Source of the DNA: Anaerolineales bacterium | Lineage (GTDB): Bacteria > Chloroflexota > Anaerolineae > B4-G1 > DUEL01 | Direction of reading: 5' to 3' | Length of the DNA: 32,528 nt | Assembly: GCA_015662065.1 (NCBI GenBank) | Contig: DQUX01000240.1 | Location: forward strand, 1-32,528 | Shown: one piece after another, positions 66 to 30,600 of the stretch | How the letters are laid out: every line of letters begins with the position of its first letter | How positions within the stretch are numbered: the stretch's first letter is position 1 | Made by a program: the position numbers and the translations under genes | Notes under the pieces: generated by a model | Seen by the model: only the letters and a program-made list of their open reading frames with translations | Told to the model about the DNA's origin: nothing | Database searches by the model: none

Positions 66-1190
66 ATGGAGGCAACGACAGGAAGCCGTCGGACCGATAC
101 CTGCGATGTGGTCGTGGTCGGCGCGGGGATCGTGGGGGCGGCAGTGGCCGTCCGGATCGCCCGGTTCGGGATGCAGGTGGCCGTGCTGGACGCCCAGAAG
201 GTGGCCGGCGGGGCCACAGGGCGAAGCGCCGGGATGGTCGTCGCCGGCCTGCCCGGCCACTACCGGCGGGCGGTGAAGGCTTTCGGACGGGAACAGGCCC
301 GCACCCTATGGGCGCTGACCATCGAGGGGCGGGAGCGGCTGGCCGAGAGCGCCAACCGCGTGGGGGTGACCCTGGAGCGGGTGGGCAGCCTGGCGGTGGC
401 GGTGACGGAGGAAGAAGTAGAAACCTTGCGGGCGTCGGCGGAACTCCTGCGAGAGGACGGCTTCGACGCCTGGTTCGGCACCACCGACCCCCTGGGACGG
501 GGCTTCCTGGCCACCCTTCGGCAGCCCGATGACGGCGTGGTGGACGTCGCGGAGCTGACCCGGGCGCTCCTCTCCTCGGCCCCCATCGCCGTCCACACCG
601 ACACCGAGGTCTACGAATTGGAGCCAACGGGAGAGGGAGTGCGGGTATGGGCCCAGGGGCGGAACGTGCGCTGCGGTAGGGTGGTGCTTACGGTGGACGG
701 ATACGCCTCCCTCCTGGACCCGGCCCTGAGCCAATGGGTGACGCCAGGGCGCGCCCTCATCGTCACCACGGAGCCGTTGGCCGGGGCAGGATTCCCCATC
801 CCGTGCTACGCTAACTACGGCCACAAATATGCCTGCCCGCTACCGGATGGGCGCTGGGCCCTGGGAGCCTGGTGGCGCCCCCGTCCAGGGGCTGCCCCCA
901 TCGAACCGGACCAATCCCTCCGGGAGGGTCTGGGCCGCTTCATCACCCGCTATTTTCCAGAGGTAAGGGGACGCATCGCCGGCCGCCGCTCCGGGGTGAT
1001 GGGCTTCACCTCCGACGGGATCCCCGTCGTGGGACGCCTCCCCCCCCCATCCCCCGTCGTCTTCGCCCTGGGGTTCGGCGGGTGGGGGCTGAGCTGGGCC
1101 TTCGTGGCCGCCGAGCGGCTGGTGGAGTGGATCCTTCAGGACACCGACCCCGGCATCCTCTCGGTGGAGCGACTTACCGGCAACCGGTAA
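66..1190 (+). CDS. FAD-dependent oxidoreductase, DAO family (glycine / D-amino-acid / sarcosine oxidase-like)
   Basis: 374-aa ORF. N-terminal Rossmann dinucleotide motif DVVVVGAGIVGAAVAVRIA. Length and C-terminal FALGFGGWGL segment are typical of DAO-type flavoproteins. ATG at 66 follows an AGGGA Shine-Dalgarno-like sequence and an AT-rich upstream region. Confidence 0.8.
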   Translation: MEATTGSRRTDTCDVVVVGAGIVGAAVAVRIARFGMQVAVLDAQKVAGGATGRSAGMVVAGLPGHYRRAVKAFGREQARTLWALTIEGRERLAESANRVGVTLERVGSLAVAVTEEEVETLRASAELLREDGFDAWFGTTDPLGRGFLATLRQPDDGVVDVAELTRALLSSAPIAVHTDTEVYELEPTGEGVRVWAQGRNVRCGRVVLTVDGYASLLDPALSQWVTPGRALIVTTEPLAGAGFPIPCYANYGHKYACPLPDGRWALGAWWRPRPGAAPIEPDQSLREGLGRFITRYFPEVRGRIAGRRSGVMGFTSDGIPVVGRLPPPSPVVFALGFGGWGLSWAFVAAERLVEWILQDTDPGILSVERLTGNR

Positions 1191-1218
1191 CAAGCAACGA
1201 GCAACCGGCAACCAGCAG
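1181..1218. repeat. Tandem heptamer array, CAACSRG family, 5-6 units
   Basis: Units read directly: caaccgg / taacaag / caacgag / caaccgg / caaccag / cag. The array starts in the last codons of the flavoprotein gene and contains its TAA stop. It fills the whole 28-nt convergent gap up to the stop of the homocysteine methyltransferase gene at 1219. Confidence 0.8.
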
Positions 1219-2088
1219 CTACCTCACCGCCCGCGCGATAGCCTCGATGTGGGCGGGGGTGGAGCCGCAGCAACCGCCGACGACCCGCGCCCCCAGGTCC
1301 ACGAACCGCCGGGCGTACTCCGCCATCACCTCCGGCGTGCCGTCGTAGAGGACCTCGTCTTCCACCATCCGGGGGAGGCCGGCGTTGGGCTTGACGATCA
1401 GAGGGACACCGGGCGCTGCCTCCCGCATCCGGCACACCGCCTCCTCGGTCATCTCCAGGCTGGCCCCGCAGTTGGCCCCGAACCCGTCCACCCTCAGCTC
1501 CGCAAGCACCTGCGCCGCCTGTTCCGGGCGGACCCCCATATTGGTCCGGCCTTTGGCGTCGAAGGAGAGGGTCACCGTGAGGGGCAGGTCGGGCGCGACC
1601 CGACGGGCCCCCTCCACCGCCGCCCGCACCTCGTCCAGGCTGGACATCGTCTCGATGTAAAGGAGGTCCACCCCGGCCTCGGCCAGACCGGCCGCCTGCT
1701 CGGCGAAGAGCGCCACCGCCTCCTCGTAGGTGCGCTTCCCCAGGGGGACCAGCAACTCCCCCAGCGGGCCGATGTCCCCGGCCACGTAGGCCCGGTCGGC
1801 GGCCGCCTCCCGGGCGATCTCCACCGCCCGTCGGTTGACCTCGGCCACCCGGTCGGCCAGGCCGGCGTGGCTCAACCGCGCTCGCGTCCCGCCGAAGGTG
1901 CAGGTCAGGATCAAATCCGCCCCGGCCTCGACGTAGGCCCGATGCACATCGGCGACCACCTCCGGCCGCTCCAGCACCCAGGCCTCGCCGGGGGTGCCCA
2001 CAGGCAGCCCGGCAGCCTGGAGCATCGTCCCCATCGCGCCGTCGGCCACCAGGACCGGTCCATCCTTTAAGCGCGTCAGGAAGTCCAT
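1219..2088 (-). CDS. Stand-alone homocysteine-binding S-methyltransferase domain protein (MetH module-I / PF02574-like)
   Basis: 289 aa from the ATG at 2088 (MDFLTRLKDGPVLVADGAMGTML...). Zinc-cysteine signature GANCG ... VGGCCGSTP. The ATG overlaps the TGA of the upstream corrinoid gene (ATGA at 2086-2090). The 29-codon N-terminal extension in the ORF track (to 2175) is Gly/Arg junk lying inside the upstream gene. Confidence 0.85.
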   Translation of the reverse strand: MDFLTRLKDGPVLVADGAMGTMLQAAGLPVGTPGEAWVLERPEVVADVHRAYVEAGADLILTCTFGGTRARLSHAGLADRVAEVNRRAVEIAREAAADRAYVAGDIGPLGELLVPLGKRTYEEAVALFAEQAAGLAEAGVDLLYIETMSSLDEVRAAVEGARRVAPDLPLTVTLSFDAKGRTNMGVRPEQAAQVLAELRVDGFGANCGASLEMTEEAVCRMREAAPGVPLIVKPNAGLPRMVEDEVLYDGTPEVMAEYARRFVDLGARVVGGCCGSTPAHIEAIARAVR

Positions 2089-2738
2089 CACCCTACTCCC
2101 ACCAACCGGCGCACCACCGTCACCGCCTCCCGAGCGTTCTCCGCGTACCCATCCGCGCCGATCCGCTCCGCCCACTCCGGCGAGGCGGGCGCTCCGCCGA
2201 TGACCACCCTCACCCGCCCCCGCATCCCGGCCTCCTCCAGCGCCTCGATCACCGCCTGCTGATTGCGCATCGTCGTCGTCAGCAGGGCAGAGAGACCCAC
2301 CACGTCGGCATCCACCTCCCGGGCCCTGGAGACGAAGGCCGCCGCCGGCACATCCACTCCCAGGTCGTGGACCACGAACCCGGCCGCCTCCAGCATCGTC
2401 GCCACCAGGCTCTTGCCGATCTCGTGGATGTCCCCCTCTACCGTGCCAATGACGACGACCCCCGGCGCGGACCGGACCTGCTCTCGGGCCACCATCTCCG
2501 GACCGAGAACCGACATCGCCGCCTTCATCGCCTCGCCCGCCATCACCAACTCAGGAATGAAATACTCGCCCTCCTCGTACAGCCTCCCCACCTCCTCCAT
2601 CGCCGGGGAGAGGACCTGCTCGACCGCCCCCAGGGGGTCTGCCCCGGCGGAGAGGGCCCGGGCGGCGAGTTCCCGCGCCCGGTCGGGGTCGCCGTCTATG
2701 ACGGCCTGGCTTAGGGGTTGGAGAAGTTCATCGTTCAT
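2088..2738 (-). CDS. Corrinoid (cobalamin)-binding protein, MttC/MtgC-like
   Basis: 216 aa from the ATG at 2738 ([17 protein letters not shown]...). B12-binding cap plus Rossmann domain with the DxHxxG lower-ligand motif (VEGDIHEIGKSLV). The longer track ORF (to 2870) only adds translation of the heptamer array. Confidence 0.85.
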   Translation of the reverse strand: MNDELLQPLSQAVIDGDPDRARELAARALSAGADPLGAVEQVLSPAMEEVGRLYEEGEYFIPELVMAGEAMKAAMSVLGPEMVAREQVRSAPGVVVIGTVEGDIHEIGKSLVATMLEAAGFVVHDLGVDVPAAAFVSRAREVDADVVGLSALLTTTMRNQQAVIEALEEAGMRGRVRVVIGGAPASPEWAERIGADGYAENAREAVTVVRRLVGVG

Positions 2739-4266
2739 CTCTAGCACCTCGTTGCTGGTTGCTGGTTGCTGGTTGCTGGTTGCTCGTTGCTCGCTGCTCG
2801 CTGCTCGTTGCTCGTTGGGGCAGTCGGTCCATTCCAGCGGCCTGGGCGGCCCGGAGAGTGATGGCGGCAAGCTCCGACACTACCTCAGGGGGGAGTTCTC
2901 TCGGCTCGTAGGCGGCGATCAGCGCTTCTGCCCGCTCATGGGCCCGCCGGACCACGTCCTTGCTCCCCTTCGCCTCCCAGTTCCGGCGGAAGTCCCGGTC
3001 CATCACCTCGCTAGGGATGAACAGTTCCTCTCGGTACCACCGCCGGGTGTGGGGGTTGGCCAGGAAGTTGCCGGCATGCCCCACCTGCCGGATCAGATCG
3101 ACCGCCAGGGGGATTCCCCGCTCGGCGACGCCGGCCACCAGCCGCTTCGCCATCCCCACGATCTCGGCGTCGATCACCAGCTTCTCCAAACTGAAACAGC
3201 TCTCAAAATCCAGCATTCCGGGTCCGCTGATCATATTGATGCCGGCCAGCGCCCCCAGGACCGCGCCGATGCCGCTCTCAAAGCCGCACTGGGCGTCGAC
3301 GATTTTTGCGTCGGACATCCCCAGGTAGGCGTGGGTGGGCAACCCCAGGTGCTTGCCTACCTGGGCGTAGGCACAGTCGATCATCATCGTCTCGACAGCC
3401 CCCATCGGCGTGGTGCCGGTGCGCATGTCGAAGGCGGCGGGGGAGCCGCCCCAGACGATGGGGGCGCCGGGGTTGGTGAACTGGTGGATGACCACGCCGC
3501 TCAGGTTCTCCGCCGCGTGCTGGACCACGGAGCCCAGCAACGTCGCCGGGCCGGTGGCCCCCGCCAGCGGCATGCTCACCAACTCCGCCGGTATCCGGTA
3601 GCGGGCACAGTCCATCAGGTTCTCGCAGGTGATCTCGGACCAGAGCAGCGGCGGGGAGGGGCAGACGTCGAAGACGGCGGTCGGTTTCTCCGCCAGCGCT
3701 TCCTCGCTGCCCGCCACCGCCACCAGCAGGTCCTTCATCACGTGCCAGGTCTCAACCCCGAAGGCCCCGGTGATCACCGGTTTCCCGGTATAGAGGAGGA
3801 CCAGGTAGAGCCGATAGAGGTCGGCGATCTCCTCGGGCACATCGGCGCAGACCAGGGCGGTGCTGACCCCGTCCATCGGGAGAAGGGAGTCGGCCAGCTT
3901 GATGTAGCGAACGAAGTCGGCGGTGACCGGAGTACGGGAGGTCACGGCCCCGTGGTCGAGGATCTCAATGGCCGCCGAGCCGGGGTCGAAGTGGACGTTG
4001 TCCCCGCCGTAATGGACCGCAGGCCGGCCCTCGAAGTCGTACAGGTAGAAGGACTTGGGAGCCGTCTCCAGCGCCCGATGCACCAAGTCGGCCGGGATGC
4101 GAGCGACCTTGGCCTCCAGGTCGACCTGGGCTCCGTGATCTCCCAGCAGGCGGAGCGCCCGCTGTGAGTGGACCCGCACGCCGGGGTCCTGCAGGAGTTC
4201 GATGGCCTCCTCAACGACCCGACTCACCGTCTCCGGGGAGAGAAACTGAAGAGTTGGTCTGATCAC
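2728..4266 (-). CDS. Trimethylamine methyltransferase (MttB, PF06253) family protein, non-pyrrolysine type
   Basis: 512-aa uninterrupted ORF with family-typical sequence throughout (...[25 protein letters not shown]...[20 protein letters not shown]...DAQCGFESG...). GTG start at 4266 lies 8 nt after GGAGGAGG. There is no in-frame TAG. The last ~30 codons translate the heptamer array ([22 protein letters not shown]...). The stop at 2728 overlaps the next gene's ATG by 11 nt. Confidence 0.85.
2748..2817. repeat. Tandem heptamer array, 10 units of CTSGYTG (minus strand CARCSAG)
   Basis: Units read directly: ctcgttg, ctggttg x4, ctcgttg, ctcgctg x2, ctcgttg x2. The plus strand has no A and the minus strand has no T, so the array is stop-free in all six frames. 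It lies in the 3' end of mttB, immediately upstream of the corrinoid-protein start. Confidence 0.9.
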
Positions 4267-4302
4267 GACATGTACCTCCTCCGGGGAGTGGATGCGGGCG
4301 CA

Positions 4303-4331
4303 AGTATATGCGGGCAGCCGGATTTCGTCAA
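4303..4331 (-). promoter_or_regulatory. Sigma70-type promoter of the mttB operon
   Basis: Minus strand reads TTGACG (4331-4326), 17 nt spacer, TATACT (4308-4303). It lies about 35 nt upstream of the GTG start at 4266. Confidence 0.6.
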
Positions 4332-4348
4332 GGATGGGCGCAACATCC

Positions 4349-4376
4349 TTGGCAACCCGTCCCCCTGTGGTATAAT
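4349..4376 (+). promoter_or_regulatory. Sigma70-type promoter of sucCD with extended -10
   Basis: TTGGCA (4349-4354), 16 nt spacer, TGG-TATAAT (4368-4376). It lies about 40 nt upstream of the sucC GTG. Confidence 0.6.
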
Positions 4377-4418
4377 CCCTCGTTGTTGACTCAACGTCCT
4401 TCAGCAGGAGGCGAACCG

Positions 4419-5579
4419 GTGAAACTACACGAATACCAATCCAAGCGCATCTTCGCGCAGTACGGCATCCCCATCCCCGAGGGAGACGTGGCGACGACCC
4501 CCTCGGAGGCCCGTGCCATCGCCGAGCGGCTGGGCGGCCCGGTGGTCGTCAAGTCCCAAGTGCTGGTCGGCGGGCGGGGGAAGGCCGGCGGCATCAAGCT
4601 GGCCCGCACCCCCGACGAGGCGGAGCAACTGGCGGCCCAGATCCTCTCCCTCCAGATCAAGGGGCTGCCCGTGCGCAAGGTCCTGGTGGACCAGGCAGCC
4701 GACATCCGCCAGGAGATCTACCTGGGCGTGGTGGTGGACCGGGCCGCCGCCCGGCCGGTGATGATGGCCTCCTCCGAGGGCGGCGTCGAGATCGAGGAGG
4801 TGGCCCGCGTCAACCCCGAGGCCATCAAGAAGGTCCACATCGACCCCTTCATCGGCCTGCGCTCCTACCAGACCCGCCGGCTGGCCAAGGGGATCGGGCT
4901 GGATCCGGCCCTGCACCGGCCGTTCGACCGGATCGCCCGGGGGCTGTACCGGGCCTTCGTCGAATCGGATGCGTCGCTGGCGGAGATCAACCCCCTGGTG
5001 GCGACCGGTGAGGGAGGGGCGCAGGGCCTTGCACCCCTACTGGCGGTGGACGGCAAGATGATCCTGGACGACAACGGCCTCTCCCGCCACCCCGACCTGG
5101 CCGAGATGCGGGACATCGACGAGGAGACCCCCACGGAGCGGGAGGCCCGCGAGGCCGGGCTCTCCTACGTGCAGTTGGACGGCGAGATCGGCTGTATGGT
5201 CAACGGGGCCGGGCTGGCGATGGCGACGATGGACATCACCAAGCACTTCGGCGGCGCGCCGGCCAACTTCCTGGATATCGGCGGCGGGGCGAAGGCAGAC
5301 CGGGTGGCGGCGGCCCTGAGGCTGATCCTGGCCGATCCCAACGTCAGGGCGGTTCTCTTCAACATCTTCGGCGGCATCACCCGCTGCGACGAGGTGGCGA
5401 AGGGGATCCTCACCGCCCTGGAGGAGGTCAAGCCCCAAGTCCCGATGGTCGCCCGTTTGGTGGGGACCAACGAGGAAGAGGGGCGGCGGCTCCTGGAGGA
5501 ATCGGGCTACGCGATGATCACCGCCACCACCCTGGCGGAAGCAGCCCAGAAGGCAGTGGCGGCGGCGCGGAACCCGTAA
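4419..5579 (+). CDS. sucC: Succinyl-CoA synthetase (ADP-forming) beta subunit
   Basis: 386 aa from the GTG at 4419 ([22 protein letters not shown]...), 7 nt after AGGAGG. ATP-grasp and ligase-CoA regions are recognisable. The track ORF start at 4308 lies inside the promoter region and adds non-homologous sequence. Confidence 0.95.
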
Positions 5580-5586
5580 CACGCAA

Positions 5587-5627
5587 CACGCAATGCGCAA
5601 TATACGCTCCGTATTACGTATTTCGTG
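5587..5627 (+). repeat. Imperfect AT-rich hairpin built from inverted CAAYRCG-type heptamers in the sucC-sucD spacer
   Basis: Left arm cacgcaatgcgcaatatacg (5587-5606), loop ctc, right arm cgtattacgtatttcgtg (5610-5627). About 15 of 18 positions pair. It is preceded by further heptamers taacacg / caacacg from 5577. Confidence 0.6.
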
Positions 5628-5646
5628 ACATAGGAGTGGGAAACCG

Positions 5647-6519
5647 ATGGCTATTCTAGTGGACAAGAACACCCGCCTCGTCGTCCAGGGCATCACCGGG
5701 CGCGAGGGGGAGTTTCATTCACGGCAGATGTTGGAGTACGGCACACAGGTGGTGGCCGGGGTGACCCCCGGCAAGGGCGGCCAGACCGCCTGCGACGGCC
5801 GGGTGCCGGTGTTCGACACGGTGCGGGAGGCGGTGGAAGCGACCGGGGCCAACAGCTCCGTAGTCTATGTACCGGCCCGCTTCGCACCAGACGCCATCCT
5901 GGAGGCGGCCGACGCCGGGGTGGACCTCATCGTCTGCATCACCGAGGGGATCCCGGTTATGGACATGATCCGGGTGAAGGCGTATCTCGATCAGAAGGGA
6001 GCCCGGCTGGTCGGCCCCAACTGCCCCGGCCTTCTGACCCCCGGTGAGGCGAAGGTAGGCATCATGCCGGGTCATATCGCCACGCCGGGCCCGGTAGGGG
6101 TCGTCTCCCGCTCCGGCACGCTGACCTACGAGGTGGTCTACGCGCTGACGGCGCGGGGGATGGGGCAGACGACCTGCGTGGGCATCGGCGGCGATCCCAT
6201 CATCGGCACCCGCTTCGTGGATGTCCTGGAGATGTTCGAGGCGGACCCGAAGACGGAGCGGGTGGTGATGATCGGCGAGATCGGCGGCAATGATGAGGAA
6301 ATCGCGGCGCGGTTCATCGCCGAGCGGATGACCAAGCCGGTGGTGGCCTTCATCGCCGGGCAGACCGCGCCGCCGGGCAAGCGGATGGGCCACGCGGGGG
6401 CGATCATCGAGGGAGGCGAGGGCACCGCCGCGGGAAAGATCGCCGCGCTGGAAGCGGTGGGCGTGCAGGTGGCCGAGCACCCCGAACAGGTCGCGGAGCT
6501 GGTGGCGACCGCCGGCTAG
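5647..6519 (+). CDS. sucD: Succinyl-CoA synthetase alpha subunit
   Basis: 290 aa: [21 protein letters not shown]..., [16 protein letters not shown], and the phosphohistidine loop GHAGAII. AGGAG lies upstream of the ATG. Confidence 0.95.
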
Positions 6520-27594: not shown

Positions 27595-27624
27595 CACCCA
27601 GCACCCAACATCGAGCACCCAGCT

Positions 27625-30600
27625 TCAAGCATCCGACTCAGCCACCGGCACTGTGAAGGTAAAAGTGCTCCCCATACCCGGCTCGCTCTCCACCCAGATC
27701 CTCCCCCCCTGAAGTTCCACCAGGCTCTTCGTGATCACCAACCCTAGCCCGGTCCCGGGAACGCTCCGCACCACAGGATGCTGAGAGCGGAAGTACTTGG
27801 TGAACAACCGCTCCTGCTCCTCCGGCGTGATGCCGATGCCGGTGTCGGACACGGAGCAACGGATGAAATGGCCATCTACCAGCTCGGCCAGAACGCGGAT
27901 ATGTCCCCCCTCGGGGGTATATCTATAGGCATTGCTGAGCAGATTGACGAGGATCTGGACCAGCCGGTTGCGATCGGCCGCCACTGGCGGAAGGGGGGGG
28001 CTGACCTCCACCTCCAGCGTCTGCCCCTTGGCCTCCACCTCTCGCCTCACCGACCGCACCGCCTCTTCGACCACCTCCTCCATCGCCACCCGGCCGATCT
28101 CCAGCCTCAGCCTCCCGGCCTCGATGCGGGAGATGTCCAACAGGTCCTGTACCAGCGCATCCATCCGGGCTACGTTGGAGCGGATCACCTCCAGGAACGA
28201 CCGTTGTCTCTCCGTCAGCTCGCCCGCCGCGCCCTTCGCCAGCAGATCGGCATACCCCTTGATAGAGGTCATCGGCTGTTTCAGCTCGTGGGAGACGAAG
28301 GAGATGAACTCGGTCTTGGCACTGTTGGCCGCCTGAACCGCCTCAAACAGCCGGGCGTTCTCGATGGAGATGGCAGCATGGTCCGCCAAACGGACGACAA
28401 ACTCCAACCCCTCCTGGTCCAACTGCCCCCTCTGAGAGGACTCCAGGGCGATAACGCCGACGATCTGCTCCTCCCGCCGGATGGGCACCGTCAGTTGAGA
28501 TACCATCCCCGGCACCACCGGCGCATAGTCGGGGTCGGCCGTCACATCCTCCACGAGCTCCGCCTTGCCGGTCCGCACCACCCGGCCCGCCAGCCCCTGC
28601 TCCAGTGGCCAGAGATCCTCCCTGTGGGTGGCGACCAACTCCTCCGGGTAGCCCTGGCTGGAGAGGAAGTGCAACCCCCGTCGCCCCCCCTCAGTCTCCA
28701 CGATGACAGCCACGAGCCCTATGTCGGCCCCCGTCATCCGCACCGCCCAGTCCAGCGTGATCTCCATCACCCGCCGGTAATCCAGCGCAGCGTTGAGCTC
28801 CCGGTCGATGCGCTGCATCATCGAGAGCTCCTCGACCCGGGCGGCCAGCGCCTGATCCGTCATCGTGAAGAGCCGGGCGTTCTCAATGGCGACGGCTGCG
28901 TTGGCGGCGAAGGCCGTCAACAGGTGCCGATCCTCGACGTCAAAGGATTTGCCATCCCGCCGGTTGAGCAGCTCGATGACGCCGATCACCCGCCCCCGGG
29001 CAACCATCGGCACACAGACCACAGAGCGGGTGACAAAATCCGAGCGCTCGTCCAGCCCCGGATACCATCGCTCGTCCCGCCGGACGTCGTCCACGATGAT
29101 GGGGCTGGCCGACTCCGCCACCCGGCCGACGATGCCGACACCCATTGGCAGCCGCATCCCCACCAGGTCGGCCGTCCGCGGCCCGGTGACCACCTGGAAG
29201 ACCAGCTCTCCCGTCTCCTCATCCACCAGGAGCAGCGACCCGGCCTCCGCCCGCAGGAGCTCGATGGCCTTCTGCATGATAAGATCGAGGACGACATCCA
29301 GCTCCAGGGTGGAGGTGATGACGCTCCCCACCTCGTTCAGGGCCTCCAACTGACGCGCCCGCCTCTCCATCACCTGGTACAGACGGGCCTTATCCAGGAT
29401 CGCCGCCGCCTGGTCGGCGATAGCCTTGAAGACCTGAACTTGCTCCTCCGTGTAGACGGTGTCGGGATCGAAGCTGGAGATATTGATCACCCCCAGGATC
29501 CGATCTCGGGCGACGAGGGGTATGCCCATCCAGGCCCTGCCGGGCTTTCCACCCGCCCGGACCCCCCGCCGTCGGCATTCGGTCAGGTAGTCATCGGTGA
29601 CGATGGTCCGCCCGGTTCGGACGATGACGCCGGTAAGCCCCTCTGTGTCCGACCAGACGTCGTCGGGGTAGCGCCGCTCCCCGTTCTCCACATAGAAGGC
29701 AAAGCGGAGGGTCCGCGTCTCGGGATCGTAGAGGGCGATGTAGAAGTTGGTGATGTCCAAAACCCGGCTGGCCTGGGCATAGATCAACTCCAACAGATCA
29801 TCCAGCTCCACCGCATAGCTGACCGACTGCGCGATCAGTCGCAGGGTCTCCAGCTCCCGCAACCGCTGCTCCAGGTCCGAGACCAGGTGAATCCGGTCTA
29901 TAGCGGTCGCAATCTGCGGGGCCAGGGTCTCCACAAACCACACATCGGCAGCACGGAACCGCCGCGCGCGGGTAGGGCCGATCACCATCCACCCTCGCCC
30001 GGAAAGGGGAACGAAGAGCCCTGGTCCCAGCCGGGCCAGCCGTTCCCGCTCCGCCTCCAATCCCACCGGCAGGCCAGCCCCGGCCGTCAGATAGTGAGGT
30101 CCCGCCTTGGCGGTCATCCACCGGGCCAACGGGCCGTCGGACCGGAAACGTACCGGGGGCGGGGCCTCCCCCATCAGCACCTGAGGCACGTACTGCCCGG
30201 TCCGTTGGTCCAGCAGATAGAGCAGGGCATACCGGGGCGCGAGGGCCTTCTCCAGCACCTCCGCGATCGCCGCGGTCACTTCCCCATCCGACCGGGCCGC
30301 CGCCACCTCCTGGGCAAAGCGCTGCAGCGCCTCCTCCGGAGTGACCCGGCGACCCAGCACCGCCCGGTCCACCAGCCGTTGCAGCGCCGTCCGAGCGGGC
30401 TCCCCGCCCAGCGCCACCGACAGCGCGAAGATCACCAGCACCACCGGGTGGAACGGGGAGATCGTCGGCAGGAAGAGCCTCCCCAGACCAGTGAGGAAAA
30501 GGTACAACGCCAACACCCCGATGGCCAGCAACACGTGGGTCGCGGCGCGGCGCACTATACAGTCGATATCCAGCGTGCGGCGACGCAGAAGGGTGTAGCC

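Follow-up and report, generated by a model that had tools for sequence, protein, structure and literature searches.

The 32,528-nt stretch of contig DQUX01000240.1 analysed here (positions 1 to 32,528 of the forward strand, assembly GCA_015662065.1; referred to as the window) derives from an Anaerolineales bacterium of a GC-rich Anaerolineae lineage from hydrothermal vents and bears, between the genes for an MttB-family methyltransferase and a corrinoid protein, a tandem array of ten 7-nt units. This array is probably a member of a genome-wide, STRR-like class of heptamer repeats residing in intercistronic spacers and permissive protein loops, while the C-terminal tail of MttB and the 11-nt overlap of the two genes are, in the best-supported reading, incidental products of the array. 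The junction comprises the following features.

2728..4266, minus strand: non-pyrrolysine MttB-family methyltransferase gene (mttB), 512 aa, GTG start, Pfam MTTB at residues 4-472
2088..2738, minus strand: corrinoid (B12-binding) protein gene, 216 aa, with B12-binding_2 and B12-binding domains (Pfam)
2748..2817, minus strand: 10-unit heptamer array in the mttB-corrinoid spacer, translated as MttB tail
2728..2738, minus strand: 11-nt overlap of mttB and the corrinoid gene (mttB TGA 2730-2728, corrinoid ATG 2738-2736)
2745..2750, minus strand: Shine-Dalgarno-like GAGGTG, 6 nt upstream of the corrinoid ATG

For 2748..2817, Tandem Repeats Finder (TRF) gives a period of 7, 10.0 copies, 93% matches and a score of 98, with the units following one another on the minus strand in the order CAACGAG (twice), CAGCGAG (twice), CAACGAG, CAACCAG (four times) and CAACGAG. 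Three unit variants make up the tract, in which no pure run exceeds 4 × CAACCAG, and both TRF and the sequence agree with an earlier, sequence-only reading of the locus that had counted ten units of these three kinds. Likewise confirmed was its description of the coding strand, which is free of T within the array and has no stop codon in any frame, and translation reproduces the predicted course of mttB through the array to the stop at 2728, which lies 11 nt beyond the ATG of the corrinoid gene (2738). About 27 residues at the end of MttB are encoded by array and spacer; this segment is rich in Q, A, T, S and N, of low complexity, as that reading had it, and located beyond the Pfam MTTB domain, which ends at residue 472 of 512. 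The GAG of the Shine-Dalgarno-like GAGGTG is the end of the last heptamer unit. A 3-unit CAACSAG pattern (at most 1 mismatch) matches the window 7 times versus 0.00 expected from 100 dinucleotide-preserving shuffles, and the RNA of the junction is less structured than its shuffles (z = +1.72; in 196 of 200 shuffles the fold is at least as good).

The frame of the corrinoid gene is also open across the array (open reading frame (ORF) 2088..2870). A start of this gene at TTG 2870 with read-through of the array was nevertheless rejected, as the orthologues begin at the equivalent of ATG 2738, which is backed by their alignment (comparison sequence MTETLLQTLGQAVIDG). The 11-nt overlap is also present in the gene calls of L014, L015 and L027. 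When the unit number was varied in simulations, 10, 7 or 13 units resulted in the overlap state. With 9, 6 or 12 units, MttB and the corrinoid protein were fused in frame, the product having 723 aa in the 9-unit case, and with 11, 8 or 14 units MttB ended in ...PATRC* with the TAG that precedes the corrinoid ATG by 2 nt. The outcomes that had been worked out by hand for loss and gain of one unit were thereby reproduced at 9 and 11 units.

In MttB orthologues with 74-83% identity from seven related genomes, the stop codon follows the conserved ...AAG(M/F)(D/E)RLP at a distance of 2-10 codons, and six of these seven relatives are array-free at the junction. Among them, G010, G008, G007 and G019 have the corrinoid gene next to mttB with array-free spacers of 11-110 nt, and in G009 and G003 another gene lies downstream of mttB. 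In G021, which belongs to another family, an octamer array (L004:1455-1505, minus strand) is formed by three copies of GACTCGCT followed by GATTCGCT and GATTCGAC, the TGA stop of MttB being inside it. A homologue search in a collection of 5.8 billion proteins returned 7,999 matches, of which the best 120 show 76-87% identity and are annotated as proteins of Anaerolineae or Chloroflexi metagenome-assembled genomes (MAGs). Most of these 120 MttB homologues (92) have 484-487 aa, with a mode of 485 aa ending in ...RLPPR and a range of 473-570 aa. The natural MttB-corrinoid fusions for which a database search had been suggested did not turn up, as none of the best 120 of 7,999 is fusion-sized or has a B12-binding domain and PF06253 is alone in all of them. 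Since in the orthologues, with their mode of 485 aa, just about 2 residues follow RLP, the 27-aa tail, which lies beyond the conserved part in the alignment, is judged to be array-derived and not conserved.

Three relatives closer than these seven also have CAACSAG-type heptamers at the mttB-corrinoid junction. L013 (>90% identity) reads TCACCGG CAAACCG TAGCCAG CAACCAG CAACGAG CAACC..., that is, at least 5.7 units before the contig ends in the array, and its MttB stop is the TAG in the third heptamer unit. L016 (81% identity) has about 4.5 units (CAG, 3 × CAACCAG, TCACGAG, GTAA, cccag, ATG) with TAA 5 nt before the corrinoid ATG, its terminal ACGAGGT...AGATGAAC being homologous to that of the window, and L017 (84% identity) has about 6 degenerate units with TAA inside. 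From these comparisons, the array appears to be an old resident of the mttB-corrinoid spacer in a sub-clade, with length and sequence drifting and the stop wandering. At genome level, the CAACSAG pattern finds 53 matches in this genome (G000), 49 in G004 and 21 in G024, compared to 0-4 for reversed-pattern controls, and none in 23 of 30 relatives; it is abundant in just three of the 31 genomes, which represent different genera and families. In this search of relatives, the family was absent from the genomes holding the closest MttB orthologues.

The window's own assembly (2.50 Mb, 426 contigs, 66.7% GC) contains 210 heptamer arrays with at least 3 copies after merging. Among arrays of at least 4 copies, period 7 accounts for 126, period 6 for 49, period 8, the third most common class, for 42 and period 9 for 16; repeats driven by coding would favour multiples of three, yet the commonest period here is 7. 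The recurring units belong to few families, namely AACCAGC (18 arrays), AACACGC (16), AAACCTG (12), AAACGTC (10), AATGACC (8), which we take to be a rotation of STRR2 TTGGTCA, and AACTTCG (8). The CAACSAG family comprises 32 arrays, and that of the window is tied for longest. In the whole assembly, heptamer arrays are not enriched at contig ends, and arrays as the cause of MAG fragmentation were rejected on this basis. Also rejected was a mobile element resembling miniature inverted-repeat transposable elements, with conserved flanks or target-site duplications, since the flanks of the 32 CAACSAG arrays share only decayed units. Besides, inverted-then-forward pairs of (CTSGTTG)n and (CAACSAG)n, which would form long hairpins, are present on four contigs of this genome (C79:~5640-5708, C169:7258-7334, C363:~1540-1603 and C101:567-618), the C79 pair being in frame in a gene for a YfhO-like membrane protein.

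Placement was studied for the 129 arrays of at least 28 nt by building a codon-usage gene model for the genome (2,260 genes, 88% coding) and considering the coding potential of 240-nt flanks. Coding flanks are co-directional at 114 of the 129 arrays, convergent at 5 and divergent at 10, with 83% co-directional gene pairs as background. The A-rich (T-poor) strand is the sense strand in 86 of the 114 co-directional arrays and the T-rich strand in 28, and in non-coding arrays A-rich sense predominates at 54 versus 13. The upstream stop codon precedes the co-directional array in 37 cases, mostly with a gap of 0-30 nt, is located inside it in 22 and follows it within 60 nt in 8, the mttB array falling in the latter group; about 30 arrays swallow or abut the upstream stop. 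From the array end to the next start codon, the distance is mostly 10-45 nt, and at least 9 of the 32 CAACSAG arrays end right at a Shine-Dalgarno sequence and start codon, which is the situation of the mttB array. The arrays thus show what distinguishes the STRR, LSSR-7 and TAACTGA-type class, namely a 7-nt tandem unit, many arrays in few families and an excess of period 7 as well as intergenic location with orientation bias and variation of length and sequence at orthologous sites. A further member of the same unit family is found next to the operon.

1176..1217, plus strand: second array (CAACCGG TAACAAG CAACGAG CAACCGG CAACCAG) in a convergent gap

It lies between a DAO-family flavoprotein gene and the last operon gene and is identical in L015; the TAA stop of the DAO-family gene sits within its unit TAACAAG.

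At about 37 arrays, the open frame carries on as coding sequence on both sides. The possibility that these are two genes joined by an array, corresponding to the fusion state elsewhere, was rejected by Pfam analysis for the seven ORFs tested, all seven being single genes. In an IleRS-like class I aminoacyl-tRNA synthetase, the array peptide TPATSNQQSASSIQ is placed between the catalytic and anticodon-binding domains. The HypF gene (C149:1458-3939, plus strand) carries three in-frame arrays. A single array belongs to the T-rich AACTTCG family and the other two to the CAACCAG family; two of these three arrays are enclosed in Pfam domains (Sua5/YrdC and HypF_C_2), which exceed their profile length by approximately the array length. 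One in-frame array each was found in GH31, GH38 and B12-radical-SAM enzymes, and two HdrA-like paralogues have arrays of different families at an equivalent Pyr_redox_2 loop. The positions in the synthetase and the HdrA-like genes are as follows.

C82:3028-3067 (this genome): IleRS-loop array of the CAACCAG type
L019:1720-1760 (G021): IleRS-loop heptamers, (CCCAAAG)×5
L020:1785-1820 (G001): IleRS-loop heptamers CCGGAAA CTCCCAA CCCCCAA CCCGAAA (CCNNAAA-type)
C272:2930-2962 (this genome): HdrA-like array of the AAACCTG type (NLKPEAPKPET)
C402:15480-15510 (this genome): HdrA-like array of the CAACCGG type (SNRQPATGNQ)

An alignment of IleRS with seven relatives revealed in all of them a hypervariable segment of 11-15 aa at the spot of the array. 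Hence, a plain insertion relative to the orthologues was rejected, as the relatives have a segment of the same length, which is heptamer-built in several of them. With different heptamer families at one loop across genera, arrays apparently turn over while the site remains tolerant.

Within the species, array and flanks are base-for-base identical, with 10 units, in five consensus assemblies, the window's own and four others (NCBI GCA_012961425.1, ENA ERZ23486699, JGI 3300005753 and ENA ERZ27236696) found via a 90%-identity protein cluster and look-ups of the encoding contigs; the five represent at least 4 sample or assembly accessions, and some may share raw data. In one of the five, MttB has an A-to-V difference while the array is unchanged. 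The locus is also present in four hydrothermal-vent runs, where the k=31 unitigs (Logan) are interrupted within the array and no unitig extends across it. Exact flank-gap-flank scans of metagenome and genome contigs gave no match, such scans possibly omitting the window's own or very near genomes. Counting units, as the sequence-only reading had proposed, therefore had a divided outcome: the number does vary across related lineages, but it is invariant at 10 in the five consensus assemblies, a result which that reading had itself set against a switch.

The following course of events would account for the junction. A CAACSAG array would have come to occupy the short mttB-corrinoid spacer, starting directly after ...AAGMDRLP, and would have overwritten the ancestral mttB stop, which in orthologues is about 2 codons past RLP. 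As the T-free sense strand has no stop in any frame, the ribosome would read on, adding a tail of about 27 residues, and would terminate at the first in-frame stop, by chance 11 nt into the corrinoid gene. Over evolutionary time, the array would grow, shrink and decay, most likely through replication slippage and point mutation, and with drifting array length the mttB stop would wander between lineages; in the sampled population, the array appears to be fixed at 10 units. It may be neutral, and any function would more likely be a general one at RNA level than a switch peculiar to this locus that alternates between coupling, uncoupling and fusion. Candidate roles are an unstructured, G-poor and C/A-rich spacer keeping the downstream ribosome-binding site open or a site at which a single-strand-binding protein could bind in heptad register.

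A switch of the latter kind was the central proposal of the sequence-only reading. As a rival explanation, the array would be a phase-variable contingency locus at which slipped-strand mispairing often changes the unit number, resulting in overlapping, separated or fused genes. In favour of it, the three states are reachable by one-unit changes in the simulation, unit number and mttB stop position differ among related lineages, 7-nt indels occur between close cyanobacterial strains (PMC4679880) and some pathogens owe phase variation to heptamer repeats (PMC12721329). Nevertheless, such a locus is highly improbable, and the proposal is not supported. Neither unit-number polymorphism, with ten identical units in five consensus assemblies including the strain with a changed MttB residue, nor a long perfect tract was found, the array being interrupted by unit variants with no pure run longer than 4, and no fused product is realised among the best 120 of 7,999 homologues. 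Moreover, arrays are in frame in an essential-type synthetase and in ordinary genes, where slippage by 7 nt, if frequent, would kill the cell or come at a cost, and about 210 arrays are distributed over the genome without a tie to one gene class, so that as one of these the position of the array at mttB needs no operon-specific explanation. Scarcely credible is an assembly artefact, that is, a collapsed or expanded repeat with the real stop before or in the array and neither tail nor overlap. Although the MAG is in 426 contigs, unitigs break in the array and the contig of one relative (L013) ends in it, five assemblies produced by different pipelines give exactly the same bases, contig ends show no excess of arrays and relatives independently carry arrays at the mttB-corrinoid junction. 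A 70-nt array is, besides, shorter than the typical read length.

That the array is a cis-acting RNA element, either a heptad-register platform for, e.g., Csp-like or S1-like OB-fold proteins or a standby site setting downstream translation, with the tail as a side effect, is considered unlikely. This explanation would suit the sense orientation of the A-rich strand (86 of 114 co-directional arrays, 54 versus 13 non-coding ones), array ends mostly 10-45 nt before starts with at least 9 of 32 CAACSAG arrays abutting Shine-Dalgarno and start, the GAG of GAGGTG supplied by the last unit of the mttB array and the unstructured junction RNA from folding against shuffles; a similar role was proposed for TAACTGA repeats by MacGregor, with CspB binding one protein per heptamer (PMC4679880). 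On the other hand, close orthologous operons function without any array, unit families vary by site and genus, which makes a single sequence-specific binder unlikely, and many arrays are within coding sequence or convergent gaps (such as 1176-1217 of the window), where a role in translation initiation would be senseless, while the orientation bias could instead arise because the A-rich strand encodes hydrophilic peptides, which are tolerated.

Membership in a genome-wide repeat class with incidental effects at mttB is hence preferred, albeit with several points weighing against it. Few unit families recur at dozens of loci and the occurrence of CAACSAG is patchy (three genera and families, with most relatives lacking it), neither of which resembles purely local random slippage, and the preference for period 7 is not accounted for by simple slippage. 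A sequence-specific selection or copying process may act on the units, and the sense bias (86:28; non-coding 54:13) together with the placement upstream of ribosome-binding sites hints that neutral passenger is perhaps too weak a term. The invariance at 10 units applies at the level of consensus assemblies, which hide minority alleles. Taken further, the arrays could constitute a sequence-specific class, self-propagating or under selection, with copies passing from locus to locus and possibly from lineage to lineage. They would colonise long-lived permissive sites, namely operon spacers just upstream of ribosome-binding sites and loops at the surface of essential enzymes, where they would provide RNA-level heptad-register binding or standby sites, and the unit number at mttB could tune the methyltransferase:corrinoid stoichiometry via the termination-reinitiation distance; this is regarded as decidedly unlikely.

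This kind of repeat has already been described in cyanobacteria, Beggiatoaceae and Xanthomonas, from which the present case differs in host lineage, plural unit families and stop-free sense units. In marine Beggiatoaceae and in some Cyanobacteria and Bacteroidetes, TAACTGA heptamer repeats are intergenic, forward-oriented and located just upstream of start codons, and binding of S1, Csp or CsrA has been proposed for them (MacGregor, 2015, PMC4679880). Common to both systems are hundreds of heptamer sets per genome, some overlapping upstream ORF ends and some in frame in variable loops, as well as a patchy distribution over the phylogeny and the lack of predicted RNA structure, 7-nt indels between related strains being a feature of TAACTGA (PMC4679880). 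In contrast, several unit families instead of one are found here, in a GC-rich Chloroflexota genome and with arrays of up to 10-11 units, and the main units are stop-free in sense and translatable as C-terminal tails and loops, whereas stop codons occur within TAACTGA, which ORFs tolerate only when it is reversed (PMC4679880).

In Calothrix and Nostoc, the STRR heptamers, among them the GGGGAYT arrays of the pec operon, are likewise, according to PMC4692102, a few heptamer families in dispersed tandem arrays, often between co-transcribed operon genes of filamentous bacteria; they differ in unit sequence, and G-quadruplexes are possible in the G-rich cyanobacterial arrays, in contrast to the unstructured, G-poor CAACSAG. 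The same paper, citing Mrazek et al. (2007), gives heptameric long simple sequence repeats as over-represented in prokaryotes and polymerase-footprint slippage as the proposed cause. For the intergenic GGGAATC heptamers of Xanthomonas, about 185 arrays per genome at conserved positions, wide variation of length and sequence among related species and inverted pairs have been reported (Rehm et al., 2015, PMC4692102), which is similar to the about 200 arrays per genome, variation between relatives and inverted pairs found here. Unlike the present arrays, of which a large fraction is translated, those of Xanthomonas are G-rich with G4 potential and described as intergenic (PMC4692102). Finally, the heptamer repeats upstream of hmw1A in Haemophilus influenzae form a phase-variable contingency locus and share with the mttB tract tandem heptamers whose unit number could in principle alter expression, but tracts of this type are perfect, long, demonstrably variable within populations and at specific surface-antigen genes (PMC8262952, PMC12721329), whereas that of mttB has imperfections, does not vary among five assemblies and belongs to a genome-wide class.

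For annotation, the 27 extra MttB residues and the 11-nt overlap would be best treated as repeat by-products; neither a functional domain nor a regulatory switch nor an error of assembly should be seen in them. The genome provides a clean case of stop-free microsatellites that would erase a stop, shift a gene end and remodel loops, even in an aminoacyl-tRNA synthetase, with permissive sites apparently re-used by different repeat families across genera. Period-7 preference, few units, sense bias and patchy spread are questions shared with the cyanobacterial STRR and the Beggiatoa TAACTGA repeats, and this GC-rich Chloroflexota lineage is a further, distantly related group for testing them.

The operon containing the junction (1219-4266, minus strand) encodes the MttB-family methyltransferase, the corrinoid protein and a PF02574 protein, with the convergent DAO-family flavoprotein gene adjoining.

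1219..2091, minus strand: stand-alone homocysteine S-methyltransferase-domain gene (PF02574), third operon gene

In ORF 2728..4266, the MTTB domain PF06253 is recognized with E = 6.7e-85, and the translation is without internal stop or in-frame TAG; together with the adjoining gene for a cognate corrinoid protein, this identifies a non-pyrrolysine MttB operon. Its content suggests a quaternary-amine-fed, split methionine-synthase-like route, and the gene order is kept in several relatives (L015, L017). In the NCBI annotation (P0006, P0007), mttB encodes 570 aa from a start 58 codons upstream of GTG 4266 (window 4267-4440, minus strand); the putative 512-aa form is favoured by the orthologues and by a GGAGGAGG motif located 8 nt ahead of this GTG. 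Elsewhere in the window, AACACGC heptamer units are present at 5578-5593 in the sucC-sucD spacer, and CACCCAG ×4 is found at 27595-27623, overlapped by a period-14 TRF row at 27600-27631.

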